Of a DNA stretch of 64,000 bases, positions 3,355-23,489 are shown one piece after another (position 1 is the stretch's first letter; every line of letters begins with the position of its first letter). The notes under the pieces were generated by a model, which searched no databases, was not told where the DNA came from, and worked only from the letters and a program-made list of their open reading frames with translations. The position numbers and the translations under genes are program-made. The stretch lies in contig JBHGAY010000013.1 of the NCBI GenBank assembly GCA_041946735.1, positions 1 through 64,000 of the forward strand, read 5' to 3'. This stretch comes from Candidatus Eiseniibacteriota bacterium. GTDB lineage: Bacteria > Eisenbacteria > RBG-16-71-46 > CAIMUX01 > VGJL01.

Positions 3355-5358
3355 TCACGGACGAAGCGCGCCGATCTGCGCGAAGACCTGCTCGTCGGTG
3401 TATCCCGCCAGCTCGAGCGACTTCGATGGGCAGGTCGCCTGGCAGGTGCCGCAGCCGTTGCAGACGCCGCTGTTGATGCGCGCGACGCGACGCAGCAGCC
3501 GTCCCTGGCGATCCCGCACCTCGATCTCCTCGACCGCGCCGTAGGGACAGACCGCCTTGCATGCGAAGCATCCGGCGCAGGTCGTCTCGTTCACCTTCGC
3601 GACGACCGGCTCCCGCTCGAGCACGTCGCGCGAGAAGAGGACCATCGCCTTCGAGGCGGCCGCGCTCGCCTGCGCAACCGATTCCGGAATGTCCTTCGGA
3701 CCCTGGCAGGCTCCGGCGAGGAAGATCCCCGCCGCGGCCGACTCGACCGGGCGCAGCTTTGGATGCGCCTCGGAGTAGAACGCGGCGCCGTCGTAGCCCA
3801 CGCCGAAGAGCTGGGCCAGGCGGGCGGCGTTCGGCTGCGGCCGGATCGCCGTCGCCAGGACGACCAGGTCGGCGCGGATCTCCATCGGACGAGCGGAGAG
3901 CGTGTCGACTCCGGAGACCACGATCTGCCCGCCGTCCTCGTACATTCTCGAGACGCGCCCGCGGAGGTAGAGGACCTCGTCCTCCTCGACCGCGCGGCGC
4001 ACGAACTCGTCGTACCCCTTGCCGGGCGCGCGGACGTCCATGTAGAAGACGATCGCCCGGCCGTCGTGGACCTTGTGCTTGTACAGCAGGGCATGCTTCG
4101 CCGTGTACATGCAGCAGATCTTCGAGCAGTAGTCGATCCCCTTCGCAGGATCGCGGCTCCCGATGCACTGCAGGAAGACGATCGTCTTGGGAATCTTGCC
4201 GTCGGACGGGCGGCGGATCTCTCCGCCTGTCGGGCCGGATGCGGAGGCCAGCCTCTCGAATTGCAGCCCATCGATGACGTCGGCCAGCCTCCCGCCTCCG
4301 TACTCCTCGTATCCGCGCAGTCCGCTCCCCTCCGGCTGCGCTCCGATCTCGTAGAGCTGGTAGCCGGTAGCCAGGACGACCGCTCCCACCGGCTCGACGA
4401 CCAGCTCGTCCTGCTGGTCGAAGTCGACCGCCTGCGGCCCGCAGAGCTTCTTGCAGACGCCGCACTTTCCGTTCTTGAAGTAGGTGCATTGCTCGCGATC
4501 GATCACCGGTTTGTTCGGGACGGCCTGCGGGAACGGAATGTAGATCGCCGAGCGCATGCCGAGACCGGCGTCGAACGCGGAGGGGATCTTCTTCTGCGGG
4601 CACTTCGTCTGGCAGACGCCACAGCCGGTGCACTTCGTGATGTCGACCGAGCGGGCCTTCTTGCGGACCGTCACGCGGAAGTTGCCGATGAACCCCTCGA
4701 CCTTCTCGACCTCCGAGTACGTGTGGAGCGTGATCTTCGGATGCTGCGCGACCTCGACCATCCGCGGGGTGAGAATGCACTGCGAGCAGTCGAGCGTCGG
4801 GAAGGTTTCGGAGAGCTGGCTCATGTGGCCGCCGATCGACGGCTCCTTCTCGACCATGACGACCTCGATCCCCGCGTTCGCGAGGTCGAGCGCCGCCTGG
4901 ATCCCCGCGATCCCGCCGCCGACGACGAGCGCGCGCCGCGTCACTGGCACCTGGATCGGGATCAGGTCCTCGTTGCGCTTGACCTTCTCGTACATCATCC
5001 GCACGAGATCGATCGCCTTCGCCGTCGCCGCCTCACGGTCCTCATGCACCCAGGAGCAGTGCTCGCGGACGTTGACCATCTCGCAGCGGAACGGGTTCAC
5101 TCCCTCGCCGGCGGTCGCGCGCCGGAAGGTCGGCTCGTGCATGGCGGGACTGCAGGCCGCGACCACGACGCCATCGAGGTGGTGCTCGCGGATCGCGTTG
5201 CGGATCAGGTTCTGTCCCGGGTCGGAGCACATGTACTTGTAGTCGACCGCGACGACGACACCGGGCAGCTTGCCCGACGCCTCGGCGACGCGCGCGCAGT
5301 CGACGGTCCGGCCGATGTTCTCACCGCAGTGGCAGACGAAGACGCCGATCCTAGACAC
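3355..5358 (-). CDS. hdrA: Heterodisulfide reductase subunit A (FAD, Fe-S; electron-bifurcating)
   Basis: RIGVFVCHCGENI, AACSP, NVREHCSWVH, VGGGIAG, FPTLDCSQCILTP, CIGSRD, YCSKICCMY, GACQGPKDI, plus ferredoxin motifs. Confidence 0.97.
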   Translation of the reverse strand: MSRIGVFVCHCGENIGRTVDCARVAEASGKLPGVVVAVDYKYMCSDPGQNLIRNAIREHHLDGVVVAACSPAMHEPTFRRATAGEGVNPFRCEMVNVREHCSWVHEDREAATAKAIDLVRMMYEKVKRNEDLIPIQVPVTRRALVVGGGIAGIQAALDLANAGIEVVMVEKEPSIGGHMSQLSETFPTLDCSQCILTPRMVEVAQHPKITLHTYSEVEKVEGFIGNFRVTVRKKARSVDITKCTGCGVCQTKCPQKKIPSAFDAGLGMRSAIYIPFPQAVPNKPVIDREQCTYFKNGKCGVCKKLCGPQAVDFDQQDELVVEPVGAVVLATGYQLYEIGAQPEGSGLRGYEEYGGGRLADVIDGLQFERLASASGPTGGEIRRPSDGKIPKTIVFLQCIGSRDPAKGIDYCSKICCMYTAKHALLYKHKVHDGRAIVFYMDVRAPGKGYDEFVRRAVEEDEVLYLRGRVSRMYEDGGQIVVSGVDTLSARPMEIRADLVVLATAIRPQPNAARLAQLFGVGYDGAAFYSEAHPKLRPVESAAAGIFLAGACQGPKDIPESVAQASAAASKAMVLFSRDVLEREPVVAKVNETTCAGCFACKAVCPYGAVEEIEVRDRQGRLLRRVARINSGVCNGCGTCQATCPSKSLELAGYTDEQVFAQIGALRP

Positions 5359-6238
5359 GGGCCGCCCCCTCCCCCGCCAGCAGGCGGTCGATCGGAACGG
5401 GAATGAAATGTCTCTTCAGTCCCAGCCGGTCCGCCGAGATCCCCAGCGCGAGCCCGACGAGCTGCGTCAGGTAGACGACCGGGATCCGCCACGACTCCCC
5501 GCGCCGCTTCTGGATCGCGTCCTGCTTGAAGTCGAGGTTCGAGTGGCAGAGCGGGCAGGCGACCAGGACGACGTTCGCGCCTCGCTCGTGCGCCTTCGCG
5601 AGGATCTTGCCGGAAAGGTCCATCACGAGATCCGGGCGGGGCAGCGCCATCGACGCGCCGCAGCAATCGAGCCGCAGCGGCCAGTCGACCGGCTCCGCTC
5701 CGAGGCGGCGCACGAGATCCTCGAGGATCTGCGGGTTCTCCGGATCGTCCACCGCGCCGGCGCCGCGCGGCCGCGTGAGCAGGCATCCGTAGTAGCAGGC
5801 GACCTTCAGCCCGGCGAGCGGCCGGGTGATCGCGGCCTTCAGGCGGTCCGCCATCTCCTCGCTCGCGAGCACCTGCGCGATGTGGAGCACCGGGAGGTCC
5901 GGGTCGAACGACGCGCCGAGCCCTCCGTCTCCGCGGCCGATCGAAGCCGGGTGCTCACGCGCCTCTTCGGCGACCGTGCGGAGACGGGAGAAGCACGAGG
6001 CGCAGCCGGTCAGGAGAGGTCCGGCGCCCGACTTCGCCGCCTGCCCGAGGTTCCACAGTCCCAGGATCTTCGCGGCCTTCGGATCGAGCGCGTGCGCCGG
6101 CGTCGCGCCGCAGCAGCACCAGTCGTCGATCTCCTTCAGCTCCCATCCGAGGAGCCCCGCGATCGCGCGGATCGACTCGTCGTACTCGCGCGCGGTCGCG
6201 TGGAGCGAGCAGCCGGGGAAGTAGGCGTAACGGCTCAT
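5351..6238 (-). CDS. hdrB: Heterodisulfide reductase subunit B (two CCG domains)
   Basis: YFPGCSL, WCCCGA, CASCF, YYGCLL, DCCGA and ACPLCHSNLD motifs. Confidence 0.95.
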   Translation of the reverse strand: MSRYAYFPGCSLHATAREYDESIRAIAGLLGWELKEIDDWCCCGATPAHALDPKAAKILGLWNLGQAAKSGAGPLLTGCASCFSRLRTVAEEAREHPASIGRGDGGLGASFDPDLPVLHIAQVLASEEMADRLKAAITRPLAGLKVACYYGCLLTRPRGAGAVDDPENPQILEDLVRRLGAEPVDWPLRLDCCGASMALPRPDLVMDLSGKILAKAHERGANVVLVACPLCHSNLDFKQDAIQKRRGESWRIPVVYLTQLVGLALGISADRLGLKRHFIPVPIDRLLAGEGAARV

Positions 6239-6765
6239 CGCGCATCACCTCCCGCGGCCTTCCGGGCCCGGCCCGGTCCGCCGACGCGCTTGCCGCCGAT
6301 CTTCACCTTCCCGCGAGCAAGGAGCGAGGGGAGCGACCCGACGTTCGCGAAGAAGGAAGCGGTCTTCAGGTTGTAGAAGGCCCCGAGCTGGACTTCCGAG
6401 AGACGCCCGCGCGCGAGGACCTGATCGAGGAAGATGCGGTTGAATGCCGCGATCCGCTTCGCCTCGACCGGGACCGTCCCGCGGCGCTCCGCCTCCTCGC
6501 GGAGGAAGTCCATCACGCGAGAGAGGTCGAGCTCCTGCGGACAGCGGACGGCGCAGGTCTGGCATCCGACGCAGAGCCAGGGCTGGAGCGCGCGGAGCGG
6601 CTCGTCGCTCTCGATCTGGAGATGCCGGAAGATCTGGTGCGGCAGAAGATCCCCTTCACCGGCGACGGGACAGCCGGCGGAGCAGTTACCGCACTGGTAG
6701 CAGCGAAACGGATTCTGCCCGGTGGCTTCGGCCACGCGGACACGGAGCGCCAACGAACCCGCCAT
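6235..6765 (-). CDS. hdrC: Heterodisulfide reductase subunit C (2x 4Fe-4S)
   Basis: CYQCGNCSAGCP and WLCVGCQTCAVRCP; GGAGG RBS; 4-bp overlap with hdrB. Confidence 0.93.
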   Translation of the reverse strand: MAGSLALRVRVAEATGQNPFRCYQCGNCSAGCPVAGEGDLLPHQIFRHLQIESDEPLRALQPWLCVGCQTCAVRCPQELDLSRVMDFLREEAERRGTVPVEAKRIAAFNRIFLDQVLARGRLSEVQLGAFYNLKTASFFANVGSLPSLLARGKVKIGGKRVGGPGRARKAAGGDAR

Positions 6766-6804
6766 CCTCCACCTCCACCCAATGCTTGGCGACTCGGGGC
6801 TCTT

Positions 6805-6822
6805 ATGTGAATGCCATCACAA
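6805..6822. promoter_or_regulatory. Palindromic operator, Rex-like (also a perfect CRP/FNR-family TGTGA-N6-TCACA)
   Basis: ATGTGAATGCCATCACAA matches the Rex consensus TTGTGAA-N4-TTCACAA with 2 mismatches. It lies directly downstream of the -10 box of the hdr-flx promoter. Confidence 0.7.
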
Positions 6823-9437: not shown

Positions 9438-10710
9438 AGCGTCCGAAGCCGTCGTAATCGATGAAGACGAAGCGGCGGCGGATCGAGTTGTAGATCCAGA
9501 TCTCCATCGGAGGGCCGTCGATCTGATGCGGGTAGCTCTCGACCTGGTCCGGCGGGCCGTACTGGATGTAGATCATCCCGCGATCGGTCTTCCAGCCCGG
9601 AATGATGCTCGTGAAGTTCTCGTTCGCGTAGCGGACGCGCGCGAAGAACTCGTCCTCGAACTCGTTCTCGGGCGTCTCGGGGCTCGGGTCCCGGCGCTTC
9701 CAGAACTCCTTCCAGACTCGGTCGCGGTCCTCGGGCGGCGCGGCCTCCAGCTCCGCGATCTCGTCGCCGGTCGCGATGTAGCGGATCATCGAGATGCTCT
9801 CCGCCGGATTCTGGACGAGCGAGACCATCGACTCGTCCATCTCGAAGCGGGCGGTCCGGCTCGCCGTCTTTCCCCCCGCCTTCGCCTCGACCCGCAGCTC
9901 GTAGCCGCCGAGCCAGAGCTTGTCGAGCGGGAGCGGGAAGCGAACCGGCGCGATCTGCCCATCGGTGGGGAACTCGCGCGTCTGCTCGTCGAGGATCTGA
10001 CGGCGCGAATCGTAGATCCGGTAGTGGACCGAGACGTGCCCGGAGCCGGCCACGTCGGAGCCGCCGACCCACGAGATTGCGCAGACCGGACCGGAGCCGG
10101 CGCCGAACCTCCGGCCGACCAGCGGATCGGCGGGAATCTCCATGCCGGTACGCGCGGCCGAGTCGCCCGGGCAGCGGACGAACCAGACCTTGCCGACCTC
10201 GAGCGCCTCCTTGCCGAGGTCGGGGATCTCGATCTCCTGCGCGAGGCGCCCCTCGTTGCCCGAATCCTGCTCGCTCACCTCAACCTCGACCCGGTACTTG
10301 CGCGGCCGCGCCGGCAGCTCGACCTGCTTGCGAAAGACGGCGGCGTCGCGATGGATTTCCGCGAGCGACCCGATCTCGATCCTCTCGTTCCAGAGGTTCC
10401 CCGCGACCTGCCGGTCCCCCTCGTACAGGACGACGATCAGGTCGAACTTCGCGAGATAGCGCGCGCCGTCGAGACGGAACATCAGCTCCCGGTACGGGAC
10501 GAGCACGGCGACCCCCACGTACGCGGAGTCGTTGCGCCAGAACGCGCCGGCGTCGAACGCGAAGCGCGGCCGCTCCATGTTCCGGGCGATCGGGGAGTCG
10601 TGAAGGTCCTCGCCCCGAGCGGGGCCGGACACCGGCAGCGCGGTGAGGAGCAGCAGGGCGGCGGCGATGGCGCTGCTCGCGCGGCCGGCCGCGCGCAACC
10701 TACCTCTCAT
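9409..10710 (-). CDS. Secreted GWxTD-domain protein
   Basis: Signal-like N-terminus; FWKRRDPSPETPENE...RVRYANENF...GWKTDRGMIYIQYGPPD...EIWIY. Start estimated (MRGRLR). Confidence 0.88.
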   Translation of the reverse strand: MRGRLRAAGRASSAIAAALLLLTALPVSGPARGEDLHDSPIARNMERPRFAFDAGAFWRNDSAYVGVAVLVPYRELMFRLDGARYLAKFDLIVVLYEGDRQVAGNLWNERIEIGSLAEIHRDAAVFRKQVELPARPRKYRVEVEVSEQDSGNEGRLAQEIEIPDLGKEALEVGKVWFVRCPGDSAARTGMEIPADPLVGRRFGAGSGPVCAISWVGGSDVAGSGHVSVHYRIYDSRRQILDEQTREFPTDGQIAPVRFPLPLDKLWLGGYELRVEAKAGGKTASRTARFEMDESMVSLVQNPAESISMIRYIATGDEIAELEAAPPEDRDRVWKEFWKRRDPSPETPENEFEDEFFARVRYANENFTSIIPGWKTDRGMIYIQYGPPDQVESYPHQIDGPPMEIWIYNSIRRRFVFIDYDGFGRYELYTPGRR

Positions 10711-11800
10711 CTCCGAAGCTCGTCCCGACGCTGCGCGCCGCCCGCACCAGCTCGCCCTCGGGCTCGACGCGGCGCAACGAGGCGACCGCCTCCTCGATCG
10801 GGACGGCCACGATCTCCCGGCCTCGCAACGCGACCATGACTCCATGCTTTCCCTCGACGGCCTCACGAATTGCTTGAACACCGAATCGGGTGCCGAGGAT
10901 GCGATCGTACGCGGTCGGGATCCCGCCTCGCTGCAGATGGCCGAGGACGGTCGCGCGAGTCTCCATGTCGAGCATCCGCTCGAGCTCGCTCGCGACCCAG
11001 TTGCCGATCCCTCCGAGCCGGAGGGGATCGGTCGACGTCTCGATCGTCTTCGCCACCATCATCTCGCCCCCGGCCGGCTTCGCCCCCTCCGACACGACGA
11101 CGATCGAGAAGTGACGCCCGCGATAGGACCGCTGCCGGATCGCGTTGGCGACGCTTTCGAGCTGGAACGGGATCTCGGGGATCAGGATCACGTCGCCGCC
11201 CCCCGCCATCCCGGCCTCCAGGCCGATCCAGCCGGCGTAGCGGCCCATCACCTCGAGCACCATCACCCGCTGGTGGCTCATCGCGGTCGTATGCAGGCGG
11301 TCGACCGCTTCGGTGGCGATGGCGAGGGCCGAGTCGAATCCGAAGGTCACGTCGGTCGCGGCAAGGTCGTTGTCGATCGTCTTCGGCACTCCGATTACCG
11401 GCATCCCCTTCTTCTCGAGATCTCGGGCGATCGAGAGGCTTCCATCCCCTCCGATGGCGATGAGCAGTTGGAGTCCGTGACGCTGGAAGGTGCGGAGCGC
11501 GACGTCGGAGAGATCGCGAAAGACGATCTTCCCGTTCTCGTCCGAAGGAACGCGGAACGGGTTGTCGCGGTTGCTGGAGCCGAGGATCGTTCCGCCACGG
11601 GCGAGGATCCCTCCCACGCTGGAGGGATCGAGATCGCGAGTTCGATCCTGTACGAGTCCCGCGTAGCCGCTCTCGATGCCCACCACCTCGATGCCGTAGT
11701 CGAACGCGGCCGTCTTCACGACGGCGCGAATCACGGCGTTCAAGCCCGGGCAGTCTCCGCCCCCCGTCAGGACACCGATCCGGCGAAGCTTCTCGGCCAT
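10700..11800 (-). CDS. pfkA: 6-phosphofructokinase (group III / mixed-substrate type)
   Basis: GVLTGGGDCPGLNAVIR, GGTILGSSN, IGGDGS, PKTIDND, EVMGRYAGW and LGHLQRGG. Confidence 0.95.
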   Translation of the reverse strand: MAEKLRRIGVLTGGGDCPGLNAVIRAVVKTAAFDYGIEVVGIESGYAGLVQDRTRDLDPSSVGGILARGGTILGSSNRDNPFRVPSDENGKIVFRDLSDVALRTFQRHGLQLLIAIGGDGSLSIARDLEKKGMPVIGVPKTIDNDLAATDVTFGFDSALAIATEAVDRLHTTAMSHQRVMVLEVMGRYAGWIGLEAGMAGGGDVILIPEIPFQLESVANAIRQRSYRGRHFSIVVVSEGAKPAGGEMMVAKTIETSTDPLRLGGIGNWVASELERMLDMETRATVLGHLQRGGIPTAYDRILGTRFGVQAIREAVEGKHGVMVALRGREIVAVPIEEAVASLRRVEPEGELVRAARSVGTSFGDER

Positions 11801-11975
11801 CTTGCCCCCCTCTCGTTCGCGCCCGCCCTTCCGCTCGCGGCCAGCGACGGCCGCGCGACCCGCACCAGGATAGCAGGAGCCCGCGCTCCTCGCGGGAAAT
11901 CGCAGGGTCGATGACGGCGTCCGGGAAGCTCTGTTAACCTGGAGTTGCGGCGCGAATTCCCCGAAAGGAGGAGGG

Positions 11976-13256
11976 ATGCAATCGAAGGGGCGAGATCCCG
12001 GCCGGGCGAGCCGGGAGGCGAGCGCGAAGCGGCGCGGCCGGTCCGGTGAAGCGGCAGGGAAGAAGCGCCGGGGGCTGGAGCGCGGTGTGTCCGAGCCGCA
12101 GGCGCGGCCGGCGCGCCGGAGCAGGCAACGCGATGCCTCTCCTCCGCCGGCGCGCCGGAGCAAGGCGGGCGCCACCGCCGGACGGCGGTCCCGAGCGTCC
12201 GCTGCGGCGGCCCGCGGTGCGCGCCAGGTTGCGCCGCCCGTGCCGCGCGCTCCGATCGAGGGGGAGCATGGCCCGGAGATCCTGCTGCGGCTCGAGGAGC
12301 TGCTGCGCCAGCGGATCCACGGCAAGGACGACGCTGTCGAGCGGATCGCGCGCGCCGTCCGGGTCCGGCTGATCCATCTCGACTTCCGCCCGGAGCGCCC
12401 CAACGGAACGTTCCTGCTCGTCGGCCCTCCAGGCGTCGGGAAGAACGAATTCGCGTACGCGCTCGCTGAAATCCTCTACGGAGACGAGTCGCTCGTCGTC
12501 CCGATTGACATGCGGGCAATGGCCTCGGAGGAAGACGTCATCCGCCTGGTCGACGTCCTCGTGCCGGGTCCGCCTCCGACCCTCTACGAGGGCATGCTGA
12601 CGGCGCCGGTGCGGCGCCGGCCGCACACGATCCTGTTGCTGCGAGGGATCGAGCAGGCCCACCCGGCCGCGCTGCGCATGATCCAGAAGATCAACGAGCA
12701 GGGATGGATCGAGGACGCGCAGGGGCGCATCTCGTTCGATCGGACGATCCTCTTCGCCACCGCCCGCGTCCCCGACGACGAGAACGGCCCGACCTCGGAG
12801 ATCGGCTTCAACCGGACGGCGAAGACGAGCGAGGAGCGGGTGCTCGAGAAGCTGCGGCGCCGCGTTTCGGAAGAGTTCCTCGACTCGTTCCAGGAGATCC
12901 TGGTTCTCTCGGCCCTCTCTCCCGAGGACGTGCGGCAGATCGCCCGCTACAAGGTGCGCGTGGTGCTCGACCGCCTGCAGCAGGGACGGAGGGGCGTCGA
13001 GGTGAGCGATTCGATCTACGCCGCGTTCATCCCGGACGAGGATGCGCGCGTGCGGGGGGCCGGCGCGCTCAACCAGACGCTCGAGAACAAGCTGCTGAAT
13101 CCCCTGGCGCGCTACCTGCTCGAGCATCCGAAGGAGCTCAGGATCCGCGTCGACGTGCGCGACGGGCGGCTCGTCATCGAGCCGGCCGCGGCGGCGGCAG
13201 CCACCGCGGCGCATCCCTCGCCACCAAAGACCCGCCGGGGCGGCGGGCGGGGCTAG
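11976..13256 (+). CDS. Stand-alone Clp ATPase second-AAA-module (D2)-like protein with degenerate catalytic motifs
   Basis: Aligns by eye with ClpA/B/C NBD2 (RP.GTFLLVGPPGVGK, IDM, LT.PVRRRPH.ILL, AHP, D.QGR, small domain). True start uncertain and possibly near 12240. Confidence 0.8.
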   Translation: MQSKGRDPGRASREASAKRRGRSGEAAGKKRRGLERGVSEPQARPARRSRQRDASPPPARRSKAGATAGRRSRASAAAARGARQVAPPVPRAPIEGEHGPEILLRLEELLRQRIHGKDDAVERIARAVRVRLIHLDFRPERPNGTFLLVGPPGVGKNEFAYALAEILYGDESLVVPIDMRAMASEEDVIRLVDVLVPGPPPTLYEGMLTAPVRRRPHTILLLRGIEQAHPAALRMIQKINEQGWIEDAQGRISFDRTILFATARVPDDENGPTSEIGFNRTAKTSEERVLEKLRRRVSEEFLDSFQEILVLSALSPEDVRQIARYKVRVVLDRLQQGRRGVEVSDSIYAAFIPDEDARVRGAGALNQTLENKLLNPLARYLLEHPKELRIRVDVRDGRLVIEPAAAAAATAAHPSPPKTRRGGGRG

Positions 13257-14599: not shown

Positions 14600-15853
14600 A
14601 TGACGACGGCGATGGTGACGCGAATCCTGTTCGTGGACGACGAGCCGAACGTGCTCGAGGGACTCCGTCGCCTCCTCCACCCGGTGCGGGACGAATGGGA
14701 AACGACCTTCGCCACCGGGGGGCGGGAGGCGCTCGAGATTCTCGATCGGCAGAGGCACGACGTGATCGTCTCCGACATCCGCATGCCGGGGATGAGCGGC
14801 GCGGAGCTGCTCGAGACGGTGCGCCGGCTCCATCCGCACATGGTGCGGATCGGGCTGTCGGGGCATTCGGACCAGGAGACGATGCTCCGCTCCCTCGGGG
14901 CGACGCATCAGTACCTGACGAAGCCGTGCGAGATCGATCTGCTGAAGAAGACGATCCGCCGGTCTCTCGCGCTCCAGGAGATTCTCTCCAACGAACGGCT
15001 TCGCGCCCTCGTGAGCCGCCTCGATTCCCTGCCGTCGGTCCCTTCCCTCTACGCCGAGCTGATGGAGGAGATGGCGAGCCCCTCCTGCTCGCTGCAGCGC
15101 GTAGGGAAGATCGTCGCCCAGGACGCGGGAATGACGGCGCAGATCCTGCGGCTGGTCAACTCCGCCTACTTCGGCCTCCGGCACGAGGTCTCGAGTCCCG
15201 AAGCGGCGGTCATCTATCTCGGGCTGAACATGATCTCCTCCCTCGTACTCGGGCTGCATCTGTTCCGGCAGGTCGACGAGGCCACCTGCTCCTGGCTGCA
15301 TCTCGACCGGATCTGGCAGCACGGGGTTCGCACGGGGGCCCTCGCGCGCGCGATTTGCGAGACCGAGGGTCAGGACGCTCGCATCGCCGAGGAGAGCCTC
15401 TCGGCAGGGCTGATCCACGACGCAGGCCGGCTCGTGCTCGCGGTGAACCTCTCCGGCACCTACCGCGCGATCCTCGATCGGGCGCATCGGGAAGGTCTCC
15501 CCCTCGCGCAAGCGGAGAGGGCCGAGCTTGGCGTGACCCACGCGGAGGTGGGCGCCTACTTGATCGGGCTCTGGGGTCTGCCGTCGCCGGTCGTCGAGGC
15601 GCTCGCGTTCCATCACGCTCCCAGCGCCCTCCCCGCAACGGGCGGTTTCGCGCCGGTGACGTCGGTCCACGTCGCCTGCGCGCTCGACCACGAGCGGCAG
15701 CAGGCGGGCGCGAGCGACGAGCCGCCTCCGCGGATCGACCCTCTCCACCTCGAATCGCTGGGCCTCCGCCCGCGCCTCGAGGAGTGGCGCCGCATCTGCG
15801 CGGAACGCGCCGCCGCCCAGGCGGAGGAAGACAGGGACAGGGACGCCGCATGA
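14600..15853 (+). CDS. Response regulator with REC + HDOD domains
   Basis: ILFVDDE, VSDIRMPG, LTKP; HDOD signatures LPSVP, QDAGMTAQILRLVNSAYFG, GLIHDAG and THAEVGAYL..LWGLP. Confidence 0.92.
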   Translation: MTTAMVTRILFVDDEPNVLEGLRRLLHPVRDEWETTFATGGREALEILDRQRHDVIVSDIRMPGMSGAELLETVRRLHPHMVRIGLSGHSDQETMLRSLGATHQYLTKPCEIDLLKKTIRRSLALQEILSNERLRALVSRLDSLPSVPSLYAELMEEMASPSCSLQRVGKIVAQDAGMTAQILRLVNSAYFGLRHEVSSPEAAVIYLGLNMISSLVLGLHLFRQVDEATCSWLHLDRIWQHGVRTGALARAICETEGQDARIAEESLSAGLIHDAGRLVLAVNLSGTYRAILDRAHREGLPLAQAERAELGVTHAEVGAYLIGLWGLPSPVVEALAFHHAPSALPATGGFAPVTSVHVACALDHERQQAGASDEPPPRIDPLHLESLGLRPRLEEWRRICAERAAAQAEEDRDRDAA

Positions 15854-16743: not shown

Positions 16744-18102
16744 CTACGCCGCCTTCTCCTCGCCCTCGCTTTCGCCCTCCCCTTCGGCCTCGCCCTCCCC
16801 TTCGAGCAGCAGCCCGCAGGAACCGCCTTCGAGCGGAAGCCTCACGACGAAGGTCGTTCCCTTGCCGGGCTCCGTCTCGAAGTCGATTGTCCCGTGATGC
16901 TTCTCCTCGATGACGGAGCGCGCGATCGACAGTCCCTGCCCCGTCCCGCTTCCGACCGCTTTGGTCGTGAAGAACGGATCGAAGATCCGGTCGCGGATCG
17001 CCTCGGGGATCCCCGTCCCTGTGTCGGATACCCGGATCTCCGCCCAGGAGCCGCAGCGCTCGGTCGACACGCGGATCGCCCCCTTGACGGGCGGGGAGTC
17101 TCCGGCGCGAGCGGCGATCGCGTGGGCGGCGTTGACGATCAGGTTCAGGATCGCCTGGTTGAAGTCCCCCGCGAGAACCGGGACCGGAGGGAGATCGGCG
17201 GAGAGGTCGAGATCGAGGTCGGCGACGTACTTCCACTCGTTGCGGGAAACCGTCACGGCGCTCTCGATCGCGCGGTTCAGATCGACCGGCAGCTTCTCGT
17301 CGCTTCCCGGATGGCTGAACTCCTTCATCGACTGCACGATCTTCGTGACACGCGCGATCCCCTCGAGCGACTGCTCGATCGCGAGCGGTGCTTCGCGCGC
17401 GAGATAGGCGAGATCGCAGGACCGGCAGGCGGCGACGAGGCGATCGACGATCGGGGCGGTATCCTTCGCGCCGCCGTCGACCGCCTCGACCAGTTCGAGC
17501 AGCAGCGGGGGAAGCGCGGCGACCGCGGCGACCGAATCTCGAAGGAACTGCAGGTTGTCGCCGGTGAACTGGGTGGGCGTGTTGATCTCGTGCGCGATCC
17601 CCGCGGCGAGCTGCCCGATCGACTCCAGCTTCTGCGCCTGGGCGAGCCGTCGCTGCAGGAGGATCTTCGACGTCGTTTCGACGAAGACCAGAAGCAGCGA
17701 GGTCCCGAGGGTGGCCCCTCCGGCCATCGGCGTGACCGCGAGGTCGAGAAACCCGTTCTTCCCGTCGGGCCTGATGAACGGCACGGACGACTCTTCGACC
17801 GTCTCCCCCGTGCTCCGCGCGCGGGTAACGGCATGAGCGAGCCAATGGGAATCCCATCCGGCAAGGAGAAAAGAGAGAGGACGGCCGATCGCTTGCGATG
17901 CGGGAACGCCGAGCAGCCGCCCGGCGAGGGCGTTCCACTGACAGACGGTCTCCGAATCGTCGAGCGTGATCAGAGCCGCCGGCATCGCCGCGATCAGTTG
18001 CTCGTTGCGAAGGTGCTCGGCGCGCGCGGCGTTTCTCGCTCCTCCCGCGTCTCGCTCGAGGCGACGCCGCCGCGTTTTCTCGCTTCTCCTCGGTGCCGTC
18101 AT
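16744..18102 (-). CDS. Cytoplasmic PAS sensor histidine kinase
   Basis: PAS region, [21 protein letters not shown]-box, [23 protein letters not shown] and GTGQGL. Confidence 0.93.
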
Positions 18103-18425
18103 CTCGGCCGCTCTCCTTCCCGCCTTCCTCAGCGAACCCGTCTCTCACCCTTGCCCTTGCGCTCACCCTTGTTCTTTTCGGGCGCGGGCGCCGGGCGCTT
18201 GAGCGCCGCCCGCGGCTCAGCGCTCGTCGTCCTTTCCTTCCCTCCCCATCTCTTCCTACTCCTTTCTGAAATGCGATTCATGACGCGCGATCGGGGGAGA
18301 AACCCCGGGGGGAAACGTGTGCAGAATGGAGAGAGGGGTCCGCAACAGTCGCGCGCGAGGGGCGCAGACCCAGAGTGCGCAAGCGAGAGCGCGCGAACGA
18401 GGACCGCAAAGGAGGGAGGTACTCG

Positions 18426-18998
18426 ATGGCTCAGTCGAACAGGCTCGAGGGACTGAGGATCGCGATTCTGGCGACCGACGGCGTGGAGGAGGTCGAGCTC
18501 ACCGACCCGAAGGAGGCGCTCGAAGAGGCGGGGGGGAAGACCGAGGTGATCGCGCCGCACAGCGGCCCGATCCAGGGCTTCCGGCATCATGACAAGGCGA
18601 ACCGGATCGAGGTGCAGGGGACGCTCGATCGTGCCGATCCCGATCGCTACGACGCCGTCCTGCTCCCCGGCGGCGCTCTGAACGCAGACGCGCTCCGCGC
18701 CGACCCGGCCGCCCAGGACTTCGTCCGGCGGATCGATGAGGCGCGCAAGCCGATCGCCGTGATCTGCCACGGGCCTTGGCTGTTGATCTCGGCCGGCCTC
18801 GTACGCGGCCGGCGTCTGACGAGCTTCTTCACCATCCAGGACGACGTCCGCAACGCCGGCGGGCAATGGCTCGACCAGGAGATGGTTCGCGACCGCAACT
18901 GGGTCAGCAGCCGCAGTCCGGAGGACCTTCCCGCGTTCGATCGAGCGATGATCGAGCTGTTCGCCGAGTCCGGCGCTCGGACGACCGGCTCGCGCTGA
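18426..18998 (+). CDS. PfpI/DJ-1 family (type 1 glutamine amidotransferase-like) protein
   Basis: AILATDGVEEVEL, LPGGALNAD, ICHGPW and SSRSPEDL; GGAGG RBS. Confidence 0.92.
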   Translation: MAQSNRLEGLRIAILATDGVEEVELTDPKEALEEAGGKTEVIAPHSGPIQGFRHHDKANRIEVQGTLDRADPDRYDAVLLPGGALNADALRADPAAQDFVRRIDEARKPIAVICHGPWLLISAGLVRGRRLTSFFTIQDDVRNAGGQWLDQEMVRDRNWVSSRSPEDLPAFDRAMIELFAESGARTTGSR

Positions 18999-19925: not shown

Positions 19926-20824
19926 GACGACTCCCCTCCCCTCTTGTACGGGCGGCCGAGCGCGGCCGGCGGCACGGCACGGCCGACCCATCCGGAGAGG
20001 ACCACGAGCGCGGCGAGATAGGGAACGGCCTGGAGCAGCTGCGTCGGGATTCCGGGGCGCGCGAGGCGGATCTGCAGCGTCTCCGCCCCGGCGAAGAGAA
20101 GGCAGGCGGCGACGACCGAGGCGGGCCTCCACTTGCCCGCGATCATCGCGGCGAGGGCGATGTAGCCGCGGCCGCCGGACATGCCATCGGTGAAGAGGTT
20201 CTGCTGGATGGTCAACCATGCGCCGCCGATCCCCGCCAAGGCGCCCCCCGCCACGACGGCGAGCATGCGAACGCGAACGACCGACACGCCCGAAGCGTCG
20301 AGCGCCGCCGGCCTTTCGCCGGCCGCTCGCACGAGCAGCCCCGCGCCGGATCGAAGCAGCGAGAGGTGCGCGAGCAGCACCACGGCGGCCGCAAGCAGGA
20401 AGAGCGGATTCCCGAGCACCTCGCCGAGCGGGCCGAGCCAGCCGAAGCCGGGCAGCGGCGCGATCGGCTCCTCGAGCAGGCGCGGGGAGTTGCTCGAGCT
20501 GTGGAACAGCGCGCGCAGCAGCGCGCGCGTCGCCCCGAGCGAGGCGATGTTGATTGCGAGTCCGCTGACGATCTGATCCGCCCGCGCGAGAACCGTTACG
20601 GCGGCATGGAGGAGGGCGGTCAGCGCGCCGGCCGCGATCGCCGCGACCAGTCCGATCGTCGCCGATCCGGTCGTGATCGTCCCGACCGCCATTCCGAAGG
20701 CGCCGTTCAGCAGGATCCCTTCGAGAGCGATGTTGATCACCCCGGAGCGCTCCGAGAGCGATCCGCCCACGCCGACGAGCGCGTAGGGAACGGCGATCCG
20801 CGCGATCTGCGCGGCCAGGCTCAT
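19922..20824 (-). CDS. Nucleoside ABC transporter permease (NupC-like)
   Basis: SERSGVINIALEG, ADQIVSG, RAAGE, GRGYIALAA..GKW; start estimated. Confidence 0.88.
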   Translation of the reverse strand: MSLAAQIARIAVPYALVGVGGSLSERSGVINIALEGILLNGAFGMAVGTITTGSATIGLVAAIAAGALTALLHAAVTVLARADQIVSGLAINIASLGATRALLRALFHSSSNSPRLLEEPIAPLPGFGWLGPLGEVLGNPLFLLAAAVVLLAHLSLLRSGAGLLVRAAGERPAALDASGVSVVRVRMLAVVAGGALAGIGGAWLTIQQNLFTDGMSGGRGYIALAAMIAGKWRPASVVAACLLFAGAETLQIRLARPGIPTQLLQAVPYLAALVVLSGWVGRAVPPAALGRPYKRGGESS

Positions 20825-20838
20825 CAGAACTTCGATCG

Positions 20839-21918
20839 CTACCTCCGTTCGGCGGCCGGCCCGGCTGCAGGCTCGGCGGCACCAGCGGCGCCCAGCGGCG
20901 CGCGCTCCCTTCCCCGCGCGTCGAGAACGATGAACGCGATCAGGATCGCCCCCACGATCACGTCGACCAGCTCGCGCGGCACGATCCGGTTGACCGAGAG
21001 CCCCGCCTGGGCGAGGAAGCCGAAGAGGCAGGCGCTCGCCGGGATCGCGATCGGCCGGTTGCGCGCGAGCAGGGCGACCGCGATCCCCAGGAATCCCGCT
21101 CCTCCCGCGAACCCCTCCTCGAAGTAGTGCTTCTGGCCGAGCACGAACGAGGAGCCGCCGACACCGGCGAGCGCGCCGCCGAGAGCGAGCGAGAGGATGG
21201 TCAGGCGTCCGACGTCCAGCCGCGCGTAGCGCGCCCGCTTCACCCCTCCGGCCAGGATCCGCCAGGCGAAGCCGAGGCTCGAGCGCAGCAGGAGCGCATC
21301 GCAAGCGGCGGCGACGGCGATCGCGAACGGCAGCGCCGTGGACAGTCCCGACCCGCGAAAGAAGCGGAGCGAGTCTCCCGCCCGAGCCATCCACGCGCCC
21401 TTGCCGATCGTCTCGGTCCGCACCGTCTCCGGGAGGGCGTAGCCGCGCACGAGCAGGTAGTTGACGAGCGCGGCCGCGACGAAGTTCAACAGGATGGTGA
21501 CGATGACCTCGTGGGCGCCCGTGCGAGCCTTCAGGAAGCCGGCGATCCCGCCCCACAGTCCCCCCGCAAGGGCGCCGGCCGCGATGCAGAGCGCCCAGAG
21601 CCACGGCCCCGGCAACGCGGCGAGGTGCACACCGGCGATCGCCATGGCGAAGCCGCCGACCGTCATCTGTCCTTCGGCGCCGATGTTCAGCAGGCCGGCG
21701 CGCAACGGCAGAGCGACGGCGAGGCCGGCGAAGACGAGCGGCGTCGCGCGGAAGAGCACCTGCCCGATGCCGTAGCCGCTCGCGAGCGCCTCGCTCGAGA
21801 GCAGAGCGAGGACATCGCCGGGGCGGGCGCCGAAGAGCGCGGCCAGCAGGAGGCCGGCGCCGAGGCCGGCCGCGGCGGCGCCGAGCGGAGGAACGAGAAG
21901 CGCGCGGCCGCGCATCAT
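20839..21918 (-). CDS. Nucleoside ABC transporter permease (NupB-like)
   Basis: ATPLVFAGLAV, GLLNIGAEGQ, GAHEVIVTILLN and GFLGIAVALL. Confidence 0.9.
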   Translation of the reverse strand: MMRGRALLVPPLGAAAAGLGAGLLLAALFGARPGDVLALLSSEALASGYGIGQVLFRATPLVFAGLAVALPLRAGLLNIGAEGQMTVGGFAMAIAGVHLAALPGPWLWALCIAAGALAGGLWGGIAGFLKARTGAHEVIVTILLNFVAAALVNYLLVRGYALPETVRTETIGKGAWMARAGDSLRFFRGSGLSTALPFAIAVAAACDALLLRSSLGFAWRILAGGVKRARYARLDVGRLTILSLALGGALAGVGGSSFVLGQKHYFEEGFAGGAGFLGIAVALLARNRPIAIPASACLFGFLAQAGLSVNRIVPRELVDVIVGAILIAFIVLDARGRERAPLGAAGAAEPAAGPAAERR

Positions 21919-23489
21919 CCGGCTCCGACCATCGCGCGCGCGACCGCCTCTTCCTGCGCATCCCCGGCGTCCGCCGCATAGCGGAGCGTCCCGCGATACA
22001 GGACGAGGAGCCTGTCGGCGAGCAACAGAAGCTCTCGCATGTCGGCTGTGACGAGCAGGACGCCGGTGCCCGCCTCGCGCGCCTCGATCAGCCGCTCCTG
22101 AACGAAGGCGGTCGAGGCGGGATCGAGACCGCGCGTCGGATGGACGGCGAGGAGCAGGCGCGCGCGCCTCCCCATCTCGCGCGCGAGCAGCAGGCGCTGC
22201 TGGTTGCCGCCGGAGAGCTGCCCGGCGCCCGCCTCGAGATCGGCGGGACGGACGTCGAACGCGCGCAGTCGCTCGAGCGCCGGCTTGCCATGCAACCCCT
22301 CGCCGCGCGGCAGTCCGATGGCGAGGTTCTCCTCGAGCGTCATCTCGAGGGCGAGCCCTTCAGCGCGGCGATCCTCCGGAATCCAGGCGACCTCGTCCGG
22401 GAGGCGCACTCGCTCCCCCGCGCCCCACGCGCGGCCGAGCAGCTCGACCTCTCCCGACGCGATCTCGGTCTGCCCGGTCAACGCCGCGACCAGCTCCGAT
22501 TGCCCGTTGCCGAGAACGCCGCCGACCCCGACGATCTCCCCCGCGTGAACCTCGAGGTCGAGTCGGCGCGGCGCGTTCGGCCCCGAGCCGCAGGAGAGGG
22601 CGCGGCAGGCAAGCCGGAGCTCGCGGGCCGCAGGCGCCTTCCCGCCCGCAGTGCCGCGTTCGGCCGGCCGGCTGCGCGCGCGGACGACCGTGCGCGCCAC
22701 GTGCCGCCCTCCCGCGATCCACTCGATCAGCCGCTCGCCGCCGATCTCACGCGGATCGCCCTCCCCCACGACACGCCCCTCGCGCAGGACGGTCACGCGA
22801 TCGGCAATCTCCATCGCCTCGCGGAGGCGATGCGTCACGAGGACCACGGTCCGGCCGCCGGCGGCCAGCTTCCGCAGCGTGTCGAAGAGCGGGGCGATCT
22901 CCGGCGGCGCGAGCACGCTCGTTGGCTCGTCGAGCACCAGAACCCTCGCGTCCCGCTCGAGCAGCTTGAGGATCTCGATCCTCTCCTGCTCGCCGATCGA
23001 CAGATGCTCCACCGGGACGTCGAGCGGCGTCGCCAGACCATGCTCGCTCGCCAGCCGCTCCAGTGCGCGCACCTTCTCGCGCGCTAGCGGCCGCCAGCCG
23101 CGCGCACCCGGCCGGCCGAGCAGGATGTTCTCCGCTCCGGTCAGCGCGCCGGCGAGCAGGAAGTGTTGCGCGCAGAGCCCGACGCCGGCGCGGAGCGAGG
23201 CGGACGGCGACCCTTGCGGGAGGGGATGGCCGGCGACCCGGATCGATCCGGAGTCGGCCTTCTGCAGTCCCGCCAGGATCGAGAGCAGGGTCGTCTTGCC
23301 TGCCCCGTTCTCGCCGAGGAGAGCGTGGATGGAGCCGGCCTGCACGTCGAAGGTGACGGCGTCGTTGGCGACGATCGCCCCGAAGCGCTTCGTGACTGCT
23401 CGGAAGGAGACGCCGGCCGTCGGAGCGGCGGTCGGAGCGGCGGGCGGACCAACAGCAGGAGCAGCGGGCGGCTGCCCGGGCTCGCTCAA
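21915..23489 (-). CDS. Nucleoside/sugar (CUT2) ABC ATP-binding protein with two NBDs
   Basis: GENGAGKTT, LDEPT, LSGGNQQ and PTRGLD. Confidence 0.93.
   Translation of the reverse strand: MSEPGQPPAAPAVGPPAAPTAAPTAGVSFRAVTKRFGAIVANDAVTFDVQAGSIHALLGENGAGKTTLLSILAGLQKADSGSIRVAGHPLPQGSPSASLRAGVGLCAQHFLLAGALTGAENILLGRPGARGWRPLAREKVRALERLASEHGLATPLDVPVEHLSIGEQERIEILKLLERDARVLVLDEPTSVLAPPEIAPLFDTLRKLAAGGRTVVLVTHRLREAMEIADRVTVLREGRVVGEGDPREIGGERLIEWIAGGRHVARTVVRARSRPAERGTAGGKAPAARELRLACRALSCGSGPNAPRRLDLEVHAGEIVGVGGVLGNGQSELVAALTGQTEIASGEVELLGRAWGAGERVRLPDEVAWIPEDRRAEGLALEMTLEENLAIGLPRGEGLHGKPALERLRAFDVRPADLEAGAGQLSGGNQQRLLLAREMGRRARLLLAVHPTRGLDPASTAFVQERLIEAREAGTGVLLVTADMRELLLLADRLLVLYRGTLRYAADAGDAQEEAVARAMVGAG

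Follow-up and report, generated by a model that had tools for sequence, protein, structure and literature searches.

A conserved Clp-like pseudo-ATPase that keeps an IGF loop of the ClpP-docking type in one order of uncultured bacteria

The IGF-type loop of ClpX, ClpA and ClpC plugs into hydrophobic sites on the flat face of ClpP. In a 64,000-nucleotide stretch of a Candidatus Eiseniibacteriota genome (assembly GCA_041946735.1, contig JBHGAY010000013.1, positions 1 to 64,000; hereafter the window), one gene encodes a Clp-like protein in which the ATPase motifs are degenerate and a loop of this type is intact. We placed the gene at positions 11976..13256 of the forward strand (stop codon included), based on its open reading frame, homology and a GC3 of 0.87, and the intact frame that the first-pass annotation had marked there proved to be a real gene of 426 aa. 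A Shine-Dalgarno-like AGGAGGAGGG (11966..11975, forward strand), read from the sequence, directly abuts the ATG at 11976, which supports this ATG as the true start and thus the translation of a basic N-terminal tail. The antisense ORF at 11934-13214 was rejected for want of a meaningful Pfam match. A scan for promoter and terminator consensus sequences at the gene found nothing, an outcome that is uninformative for the host phylum.

We examined the domain architecture by sequence and by predicted structure. An AAA+ large (alpha/beta) subdomain of the Clp/Hsp100 D2 type spans residues 96-311 (12261..12908, forward strand), as indicated by Pfam AAA_2 (residues 141-307, E=3.7e-21, 76.3 bits against a cut-off of 27), pLDDT above 90 and Foldseek, and is followed at residues 312-410 (12909..13205, forward strand) by a D2-small (lid) subdomain, also with pLDDT above 90 and matched by Pfam ClpB_D2-small (E=2.2e-05, 24.8 bits against a cut-off of 21.9). 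Both Pfam domains were detected in all 52 family members. The NCBIfam ClpB model was matched over its positions 550-852 (E=8e-47), far under the model cut-off, and the ClpA, ClpB and ClpC equivalog models gave 107-160 bits against cut-offs of 993-1232, with coverage only of positions ~550-852. The best solved structure by sequence was the D2 of B. subtilis ClpC (residues 496-808, E=3.4e-42); in the AF2 model the core has a pLDDT above 90, and its top Foldseek matches were the NBD2 of ClpC and ClpB (E down to 7.8e-29), including chains from ClpC-ClpP complexes. By both sequence and fold the protein belongs to the Clp/Hsp100 D2 module, and it is derived from the D2 (second ATPase ring) of a ClpC-type unfoldase. 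The 426-aa protein lacks the full-length N-domain/D1/D2 architecture of active Clp/Hsp100 unfoldases, and a Pfam scan found no Clp_N or D1 lid within or beside the gene, as the first-pass annotation had held. The same annotation had called the protein D2-only, which is right for residues 96-410 but overlooks a conserved polybasic tail at residues 1-95. A split gene with an orphan D1/N-domain partner was rejected, as no such partner was found in the own genome: in that genome (94.8% complete) the D1 lid and Clp_N domains are confined to three full-length Hsp100s, so the pseudo-ATPase is not half of a split gene. One 596-aa match (P0069) joins the AAA part of the family to a GFO oxidoreductase, and we take it to be a frameshift or a gene-call merge of two adjacent genes, with no real fusion.

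The substitutions in the window protein were read from its alignment to B. subtilis ClpC D2, and the state of each motif was counted over 52 homologues (all motif coordinates are on the forward strand). In the Walker A motif, GPPGVGKN (residues 150-157, 12423..12446), GKT has become GKN (G155-K156-N157), keeping the Lys and exchanging Thr for Asn; the P-loop Lys, K156, is invariant (52/52), and the triplet reads GKN in 42 members, GKS in 5 and GKT in 5. The former pore-1 loop, DVLVPGPPPTLYE (residues 193-205, 12552..12590), is proline-rich, with VPGPPPT in place of PPGYVGY; the GYVG motif occurs in 0/52 members, and some have stray aromatics at other positions of the loop. The former Walker B, ILLLRG (residues 219-224, 12630..12647), has Arg-Gly instead of Asp-Glu, a pair that is found in none of the 52, the first position being R, K, H or Q and the second G, W, C or A. 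At the former sensor-1 (residues 262-264, 12759..12767) TSN is replaced by TAR; T262 is invariant, and in 79% of the 52 an Arg takes the place of the Asn. The former arginine-finger site (residues 301-304, 12876..12887) reads FLDS where ClpC has FINR, and no member (0/52) has Arg at the finger position. Finally, the former sensor-2 (residues 361-363, 13056..13064) has changed from GAR to GAG, the majority state of the family (28/52), with GAR in 10/52 and GAK in 4/52; 7 of the 10 members with GKS or GKT also keep the sensor-2 Arg. All six substitutions proposed by the first-pass annotation were thus seen in the alignment. Its wording of a loss of every catalytic motif applies to Walker B, the arginine finger and GYVG, which are gone in 52/52, but goes too far for the P-loop, with its invariant Lys and the GKS or GKT of 10/52.

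The window protein lacks these features of an active unfoldase: a Walker A with [T/S], a Walker B with DE, sensor-1, the arginine finger, sensor-2 and GYVG. The loss of catalytic residues in a gene that is kept under purifying selection, as here, marks a pseudoenzyme, and we predict an ATPase-dead state. ATP hydrolysis by the canonical AAA+ mechanism would not take place, as Walker B has lost its Asp-Glu and sensor-1 its Asn, and the arginine finger is missing too; because the pore-loop Tyr is lost, the protein would neither grip nor pull polypeptides. Nucleotide binding without hydrolysis appears more likely than a nucleotide-free protein, given the invariant P-loop Lys and the ten GKS/GKT members, seven of them with the sensor-2 Arg. 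The family could still be an enzyme, if a rebuilt pocket (Arg at Walker B and sensor-1, Glu226 kept) hydrolysed ATP or another phosphate compound in a non-canonical way, or if an Arg of a partner completed the site in trans, as in the Torsin-type AAA+ proteins, whose activation depends on an arginine finger contributed by a partner. The invariant P-loop GxxGxGK, the GKS/GKT members, a sensor-2 Arg or Lys in 14/52 and the near invariance of E226 in the 'IEQAH' segment across the family would suit such an enzyme. We regard it as very unlikely, however, given that the Walker B catalytic position is acidic in 0/52, that the metal-coordinating Thr/Ser is lost in 42/52 and that, with the pore loop lost, hydrolysis would be unable to drive translocation.

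We then considered whether the degenerate motifs belong to a gene that is kept. The gene is single-copy in 31 of the 32 other genomes of the same order, the one miss being a genome that is 68% complete, and it is absent from all 168 other genomes sampled across the phylum (168/168). Since the family is confined to one order, the phyletic evidence counts as a single evolutionary event. The family proteins carry the label Candidatus Eisenbacteria. The core frame is open in 29/29 loci, and NG86 dN/dS is 0.07-0.28 for pairs with dS <1, which argues against a decaying pseudogene. Distant pairs gave a median of 0.44 over 430 pairs (maximum 0.97), which we attribute to dS saturation, and relaxed constraint on some branches may contribute. 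A decaying pseudogene, or a mis-called ORF in a high-GC genome, would account for degenerate catalytic motifs, and high-GC DNA does give many spurious long ORFs (44 ORFs overlap the 10 kb around the gene). This explanation is refuted by the open frames and the near-universal single copy within the order, by the low dN/dS of the unsaturated pairs, by 48 invariant columns among the 304 of the family core, by a confidently predicted AAA+ fold and by the Shine-Dalgarno-like sequence before the start. The first-pass annotation had argued against random decay and had proposed to check whether the motif states and the IGF are conserved among homologues and whether dN/dS is neutral; both the degenerate motifs and the IGF are conserved family-wide over the 52 homologues, and the dN/dS of the unsaturated pairs departs from neutrality.

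A profile search of 1.84 billion representatives recovered five full-length clusters of the family, plus fragments. Beyond the family, all the matches that we inspected (8 read and 12 aligned, among the 150 matches listed) were canonical; the 12 aligned ones were short Clp-like matches in which, wherever they cover the region in question, the motifs of Walker B, the pore loop and the arginine finger are retained, save for one match that departs at the arginine finger. The nearest canonical relatives inspected, by profile score among the matches listed, were full-length proteins, and two of the three that were looked up are named, as an 'AAA family ATPase' of Chloroflexota and an 'ATP-dependent Clp protease ATP-binding subunit' of Bacillota. 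The ESM Atlas also holds D2-only clusters of ~300 aa, mainly labelled Verrucomicrobiota.

A divergent phosphofructokinase gene (10700..11800, reverse strand, start ATG at 11800; Pfam PFK E=2.2e-104) adjoins the pseudo-ATPase gene in 15 of 20 orthologous loci, and a gene for a GWxTD protein lies near it in 18 of 20. The phosphofructokinase gene is probably not a functional partner, and we read this neighbourhood as synteny rather than as a functional link. The gene on the 3' side varies by family: a GFO oxidoreductase gene in 3/20 loci, a gene for a FlgD_ig-domain protein in 3 of 8 scanned loci and a convergent PNP_UDP_1 phosphorylase gene in 4 of those 8. An operon partner was rejected, as the downstream gene is not constant and only the phosphofructokinase and GWxTD neighbours are conserved; in the orthologous loci examined, the gene shares no conserved operon with a clp gene. 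Membership in a defence system was also rejected, PADLOC having given weak P-loop matches only (E >= 5.5e-4).

A strictly kept part of the protein is a tripeptide, I276-G277-F278 (12801..12809, forward strand), on a flexible loop equivalent to the ClpP-docking loop of ClpC, ClpX and ClpA. It lies exactly where the first-pass annotation had placed its EIGF site, with the 'VGFN' of ClpC aligned to the 'IGFN' of the window protein. The IGF is present in 52/52 members (entropy 0), while the flanking loop positions mostly vary by ~1-3 bits, and the pLDDT of the loop is 66-81. The window protein carries the [LIV]G[FL] element of the docking partners, exposed on a flexible loop on the side that faces ClpP. 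The same conservation signature is seen in the order's genuine ClpX, with IGF in 29/29 and variable flanks. ClpB does not dock on ClpP, and the ClpB of the own genome has no such tripeptide (by eye).

Potential partners are present in the own genome, which encodes ClpP1 beside ClpX, as well as ClpP2, ClpC, ClpB and a third Hsp100. We predicted the docking of residues 96-410 on three copies of ClpP1 and obtained a score of 0.52 (runs 0.45, 0.52 and 0.52; best of 3 controls 0.00), which falls in the 'weak support' band, in which, by the calibration of the tool, most passes are false unless there was a good prior. Contact agreement among the runs was at least 84% and partner pLDDT at least 77. 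In calibration the mark was reached by 116/157 solved complexes and 2/215 mismatches; 18 of the 157 solved complexes, and both of the passing mismatches, reached it with scores <=0.60. The score for ClpP1 may also be a memory of likeness to the solved ClpC-ClpP family.

The resident Hsp100s could be targets themselves, if the dead D2 inserted into or stacked on hexamers of ClpC or the third Hsp100 and tuned them as a regulatory or poison subunit, with no action on ClpP alone. Each of the three resident Hsp100s has a D2 with 32-34% identity to the core, the nearest canonical relatives inspected are full-length proteins, and dead AAA+ subunits are known in mixed rings such as that of the clamp loader, with its delta and delta-prime. 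Nevertheless, a one-ring protein misfits the geometry of a two-ring hexamer, an identity of ~33% makes conserved ring interfaces unlikely, and the invariance of the IGF instead of a ring interface would be unexplained. The third Hsp100 also has an EIGF loop, but it is sporadic, with close matches in one genome of the family, while four genomes from other families have matches of 42-45% identity, and its co-distribution with the pseudo-ATPase was rejected for this reason. We consider such a subunit distinctly improbable.

The N-terminal tail (residues 1-95, 11976..12260, forward strand) is disordered, with pLDDT 45-55, and residues 1-99 contain 27% K+R, with a net charge of +19. A basic tail was found in 50/52 homologues (median 65 aa, 33% K+R, 3.5% D+E), with a median net charge of +20 against about -4 for the core. 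It has 17.6% K even in high-GC genomes, from which we argue for selection on charge. Its length ranges from 26 to 153 aa across the family, its sequence is not alignable, and no Pfam family was found in the tail of any of the 52 members. These properties also suit a scaffold that is independent of ClpP, in which the dead AAA+ shell would be an oligomerisation platform or nucleotide sensor for a tail that binds nucleoid, RNA, ribosomes or polyphosphate, and the IGF loop would contact the hydrophobic groove of another partner or be structural. The charge and Lys content of the tail, the absence of a genomic link to clp genes and a docking prediction in the weak band all lean this way. We nevertheless find the scaffold doubtful: the IGF is kept more strictly than the tail, its conservation signature is that of the docking loop of ClpX from these genomes, the non-docking ClpB of the own genome has no such tripeptide (by eye), and Pfam nucleic-acid-binding families match 0/52 members.

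We also examined ClpP2. This paralogue is present in 31 of the 32 other genomes of the order and in 0/168 outside it, the same distribution as that of the pseudo-ATPase. Its N-terminal extension is net acidic in 12/12 loci (median -11 over 35 residues), and this polyacidic segment would take the place of the usual gating hairpin that the ClpP N-terminus forms at the axial pore. Based on the shared distribution, the acidic extension and the +20 median of the tail, the pseudo-ATPase might be the dedicated partner of the order-specific ClpP2, in a capped ClpP or ClpP1P2 protease that is independent of hydrolysis and has its pore gated by charge pairing between the two tails. Given their shared ancestry, the co-occurrence of the two genes counts as one event only, and we hold this pairing to be unlikely. 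If true, it would be a bacterial counterpart, made from a dead AAA+ ring, of the ATP-independent proteasome activators.

With fold, motif states, conservation, selection and distribution established, we read the pseudo-ATPase as a ClpP-docking cap or regulator that is dead in hydrolysis, to which we give a probability of roughly 0.5. With its AAA+ fold and retained P-loop Lys, the protein would probably still bind a phosphate ligand, either a nucleotide or another compound. It would dock on ClpP through its IGF loops as a non-motor cap, probably in the form of a ring. Against this reading, the arginine finger is lost, as is sensor-2 in most members, and with them go contacts through which nucleotide binding normally promotes the assembly of hexamers; ClpX requires several IGF loops, and the binding of a monomer, which has just one, would be weak. 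Once docked, the cap could keep the ClpP gate open and so admit unstructured polypeptides, or, by occupying the docking face, it could govern the access of ClpX and ClpC, the motors proper. The polybasic tail might tether the complex to a polyanion, for which nucleic acid, polyphosphate and an acidic segment of a protein are candidates. Opening, blocking and poisoning of ClpP would all be compatible with the sequence, which does not discriminate among them.

If the cap reading is true, a motor-less Clp ring with a docking loop has been kept by selection, cells can regulate ClpP by a passive cap, and docking is separable from motor function in nature; the family would also offer a ready-made protein for studies of ClpP gate opening or blocking without ATP turnover. 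The impact is limited by the restriction of the family to one order of uncultured bacteria. The public labels of the family, 'ATP-dependent Clp protease ATP-binding subunit ClpA/ClpC' or 'AAA family ATPase', are contradicted by the sequences of its members and call for correction. To our knowledge, the well-studied protein partners that dock on ClpP via IGF-type loops are all ATP-burning motors, and opening of ClpP without motors is known only from antibiotics that mimic the loop. The first-pass annotation knew of no described family of this kind, and our literature search likewise found no description of a ClpP-docking pseudo-ATPase of the Clp type.

Among known systems, the CLPB/Skd3-type single-ring relatives resemble the pseudo-ATPase in having one D2-type ring and an unrelated N-terminal part, and CLPB is among its sequence matches (E ~1e-11); Skd3, unlike the proposed cap, works as an active disaggregase and is not known to bind ClpP. 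Occupation of the ClpP docking face without ATP, for opening or blocking, has parallels in the acyldepsipeptide-type small molecules, which are described in the available text of PMC9035409 as mimics of IGF loops and non-motor binders of ClpP, and in a chloroplast co-chaperonin complex, reported in the available text of bioRxiv 10.1101/2021.07.26.453741 to bind and inhibit ClpP. Both are chemically and evolutionarily unrelated to the pseudo-ATPase, and neither is a degenerate AAA+ protein. With ClpX and ClpA, whose IGF/IGL motif is described in the available text of PMC9035409 as docking at the H sites of ClpP, the family shares a flexible loop of variable sequence that bears an invariant IGF, as in the ClpX of the same genomes; those proteins are ATP-hydrolysing motors with pore loops that feed ClpP, whereas the pseudo-ATPase has neither the hydrolytic motifs nor the pore loops. 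The closest comparison is the D2 of B. subtilis ClpC (7abr, 3j3s), with the same fold, its AAA+ large and D2-small subdomains arranged in the same order, ~30% identity and [LIV]GF at the aligned position; relative to ClpC, the pseudo-ATPase is without the N-domain, D1 and M-domain, has lost Walker B, sensor-1, the arginine finger and the pore Tyr, has exchanged the Walker A Thr for Asn, and has gained a polybasic tail.

P0001, the 426-aa Clp-D2-like protein encoded at positions 11976–13256 (+), corresponds to one of two mirror ORFs at its site, and coding character was found in this reading only (GC3 0.87 vs GC2 0.51); the translation of the antisense ORF had no real match in Pfam and that ORF was rejected. 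The window has a GC content of 66–74% and is full of spurious ORFs, with 44 of 60 aa or more overlapping the 10 kb around the gene. AT skew was 0.25 at 20001–22000 and 0.18 at 58001–60000 versus near zero elsewhere, and the same two segments hold the highest GC of the window (0.73–0.74). The ATG at 11976 is preceded by a Shine-Dalgarno-like AGGAGGAGGG (+) whose end lies one base away from it, and the divergent phosphofructokinase gene starts at 11800, which together argue that the first 95 residues are translated.

The Pfam domains AAA_2 (E=3.7e-21, residues 141–307) and ClpB_D2-small (E=2.2e-05) were detected in P0001, and the NCBIfam ClpB, ClpV, ClpK, ClpG and ClpA models matched through their last ~300 positions only, far below their cut-offs (e.g. 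160 bits for ClpB, with a cut-off of 1232). The best solved relative by sequence was B. subtilis ClpC D2 (residues 496–808, E=3.4e-42). An AlphaFold2 model built on an alignment of 52 family members had a mean pLDDT of 84.3 and a pTM of 0.75: pLDDT was above 90 almost throughout the core (residues 96–410), 45–55 in the tail (residues 1–95) and 66–81 in the block with the IGF loop, as expected of a flexible loop. In Foldseek the model grouped with NBD2 structures of ClpC and ClpB (lowest E 7.8e-29), including chains of ClpC-ClpP and ClpC1-ClpP1P2 complexes.

The alignment with ClpC D2 bore out all six motif changes listed in the first-pass annotation: Walker A GVGKT to GVGKN, pore loop PPGYVGY to VPGPPPT, Walker B LLD(E)IEKAH to LLRGIEQAH, sensor-1 TSN to TAR, arginine finger EFINR to EFLDS, and sensor-2 GARPL to GAGAL. 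SEIGFN of P0001 aligned opposite KYVGFN of ClpC, so that I276-G277-F278 (bases 12801–12809) indeed occupies the position of the ClpP-docking loop. Both the degeneration and the loop proved to be conserved among homologues: across the 52 sequences the Walker B Asp-Glu was found in none (replaced by [R/K/H/Q][G/W/C/A]), an arginine-finger Arg in none and the GYVG pore motif in none, and the IGF tripeptide was present in all. The earlier claim that every catalytic motif is lost thus holds for Walker B, the arginine finger and the pore motif but not for the P-loop lysine, which is kept in 52/52. The residue following that lysine was Asn in 42 members, Ser in 5 and Thr in 5, and sensor-2 read GAG in 28, GAR in 10, GAK in 4 and otherwise in 10. 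The ten GKS/GKT members fall within the family's more distant half, and in 7 of them the sensor-2 arginine is retained as well. Judged from these motif states, the family has wholly lost hydrolysis and substrate grip, and not necessarily nucleotide binding, which is probably kept. A rebuilt and still active site, to which the retained lysine and the GKS/GKT members could be referred, is improbable beside a Walker B acidic pair missing throughout.

Column entropy was 0 at I276, G277 and F278, with 1.0–2.8 bits at the thirteen loop positions before them and mostly 0.9–3.2 bits after them; the core had a median of 1.27 bits and 48 invariant columns out of 304. As a positive control, the genuine ClpX of the same taxonomic order, encoded beside ClpP1 (the ClpP next to ClpX), carried IGF in its docking loop in 29/29 loci, with variable flanks. 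The loop of P0001 therefore shows the conservation pattern of an established ClpP-docking loop.

A word-indexed search of 5.8 billion proteins gave 59 matches, of which 57 were 286–455 aa long and 47–100% identical and two were distant; some carried the source label 'Candidatus Eisenbacteria bacterium', and public product names included 'AAA family ATPase' and 'ATP-dependent Clp protease ATP-binding subunit ClpA/ClpC'. We then sampled 200 other genomes of the phylum. One match per genome was found in 31 of the 32 genomes of the same order (5/5, 1/1, 11/12 and 14/14 by family), the single miss being a 68%-complete genome, and no match at E ≤1e-50 was found in the 168 genomes of 14 other families. 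Because the first look of this search was set more strictly, a missing match is to be read as 'not found with this query'; the negative genome G015 is unpublished. The core frame was open from start codon to stop in 29/29 fetched loci, except that a contig edge truncates one of them on the 5' side. Where the genome search had flagged 'stops inside', these precede the true starts and fall in the part aligned to the tail. Nei-Gojobori dN/dS (30 sequences, 435 pairs) was 0.07–0.28 for pairs with dS <1, and over the 430 pairs with finite dS <3 it had a median of 0.44 and a maximum of 0.97, a rise in distant pairs that we attribute to saturated synonymous sites, GC3 being near 0.87. The open frames and the low dN/dS of close pairs agree with the first reading of the gene as something other than random decay, and the probability of a pseudogene, to which lost catalytic motifs might otherwise point, is negligible.

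A profile search of 1.84 billion representatives returned five full-length family clusters at 438–593 bits together with fragments, and then canonical proteins. Among the matches listed, the 8 canonical ones examined in full were ordinary or multi-D2 Clp proteins, and 12 further short ones kept the Walker B Asp, a GYVG-type pore loop and the arginine finger, except for one with Gly-Arg at the finger. Taken with the genome sample, these results indicate that the degenerate form is, as far as the searches reach, a narrow order-level invention and not widespread. P0073 (728 aa; source label Chloroflexota) was among the closest canonical matches listed with full N-domain-D1-D2 architecture; another protein, P0081, was labelled Bacillota. 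By eye, D1 of P0073 looks degenerate, with a non-canonical Walker A lysine-threonine and Walker B acidic pair, and its D2 is intact with an LGF loop, the reverse of the P0001 pattern. The ESM Atlas also holds several large D2-only Clp-like clusters of ~300 aa, mostly labelled Verrucomicrobiota, one of them with 922 members; these could be active single-ring proteins, further dead forms or fragments.

P0001 had been described as D2-only, which is right in that it has no D1 or N-domain, but the description passed over residues 1–95, a polybasic low-complexity tail. Such a tail was present in 50/52 members; the other two start at the conserved core or slightly ahead of it. It is 26–153 aa long (median 65), with 33% K+R and 3.5% D+E, a median net charge of +20 (vs about -4 for the core) and no Pfam match among the 52 members. 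The tails are not alignable and are built largely from K, A, R, S, P, G and T. That lysine leads this list (17.6%) at so high a GC content points to selection acting on charge and not to a drifting composition. Nucleic acid, polyphosphate or an acidic protein segment are plausible ligands. A core serving as a ClpP-independent scaffold for this tail is a possible but minority reading, to be set against the invariant IGF.

The P0001 gene stands by itself, with no clp gene nearby. Upstream, the divergent phosphofructokinase gene adjoins in 15/20 orthologous loci and a GWxTD-domain protein gene in 18/20. The downstream neighbour varies by family: a GFO/IDH/MocA oxidoreductase in the window's own family (3/20 loci), a FlgD_ig-domain protein in another and a convergent phosphorylase-superfamily gene in a third. 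In one prediction, the 596-aa metagenome protein P0069, the AAA part of the family is joined to a GFO/IDH/MocA oxidoreductase, probably through a frameshift or gene-call merge of two genes adjacent in the window's own family. PADLOC gave weak P-loop matches only, and membership in a defence system was rejected. Elsewhere in the window we found a heterodisulfide-reductase-like set of three adjacent genes at 3355–6816 (-), namely an HdrA-like flavoprotein with 4Fe-4S domains, a CCG cysteine-rich protein and a 4Fe-4S dicluster protein, with synteny kept at 66–87% identity in the three loci from the window's own family; a fusion of a response-regulator receiver with an HDOD domain at 14600–15853 (+); a PAS histidine kinase at 16744–18102 (-); and a DJ-1/PfpI protein at 18270–18998 (+).

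ClpP1, whose gene is followed by that of ClpX, and a further ClpP (ClpP2) are encoded in the genome. It also encodes HslU and three full-length Hsp100s: ClpC, which has an LGF loop, ClpB, in which no such loop is seen, and a third one bearing an EIGF loop. No D1 lid or Clp_N domain was found outside these three, which rules out P0001 as the D2 half of a split unfoldase. That P0001 modulates these Hsp100 rings, whose D2 it resembles, is unlikely. ClpP2 orthologues (57–72% identity) were found in 31 of the 32 other genomes of the order, one match being partial and the genome missing it 86% complete; outside the order (168 genomes) the best ClpP-region matches among those listed were 37–45% identical, the same level as the ClpP2 query against ClpP1. 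Aligned with ClpP1, ClpP2 keeps the residues at what we take to be the catalytic Ser, His and Asp positions. It lacks the conserved N-terminal hairpin sequence of ClpP1 and has instead an acidic extension, net negative in all 12 loci inspected (median -11 across 35 residues). The two order-specific proteins, a dead ring with IGF loops and a polybasic tail and a ClpP with a polyacidic axial extension, suggest a dedicated pair, a prediction from sequence that we consider rather doubtful; both proteins could simply descend from the ancestor of the order. On another contig of the same genome (C67:157325–158500; 880–2055 of fetched locus L002), dCMP/cytidine deaminase and ClpP domains share one 391-aa frame (dCMP_cyt_deam_1 3.6e-25, CLP_protease 7.6e-62). 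In most related genomes these are adjacent genes with a stop codon between, and the frame is either a real fusion or a stop codon lost in assembly.

The complex of three ClpP1 copies (alignment of 26 orthologues) with residues 96–410 of P0001 (52-sequence alignment) was predicted with a docking score of 0.52 (runs 0.45, 0.52 and 0.52) versus 0.00 for the best of three controls, graded 'weak support' by the tool; contacts agreed by at least 84% between runs and partner pLDDT was at least 77. The passing mark was reached by 116/157 solved complexes and 2/215 mismatches in calibration, and passing scores of 0.60 or less comprised just 18 of the 157 solved complexes and both passing mismatches. 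Since structures of homologous ClpC-ClpP complexes exist, the pass may stem from likeness to that family instead of from binding that P0001 has kept, and the score adds a small increment to the case for ClpP binding, not proof.

We predict that P0001 is a ClpP-docking cap or regulator, with a probability of roughly 0.5. The family offers unusually clean sequence evidence and a testable idea, though it is narrow, its hosts are uncultured and its ClpP binding is a prediction. As first supposed, searches of open-access papers and bioRxiv found no Clp-derived pseudo-ATPase docking on ClpP; among the listed titles and abstract openings of papers that mention Eisenbacteria, none dealt with Clp. ClpA and ClpX need only bind ATP, not hydrolyse it, to assemble on ClpP. 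A nucleotide-binding D2 ring that is dead for hydrolysis and has no pore-loop grip would remain permanently docked on ClpP as a passive cap, which might admit unstructured polypeptides or shut out ClpX and ClpC. In known systems, according to one study, IGF loops dock at hydrophobic sites between adjacent ClpP subunits, small molecules at the same sites activate ClpP, and the gate of the ClpA-bound ClpP ring is open (PMC9035409).
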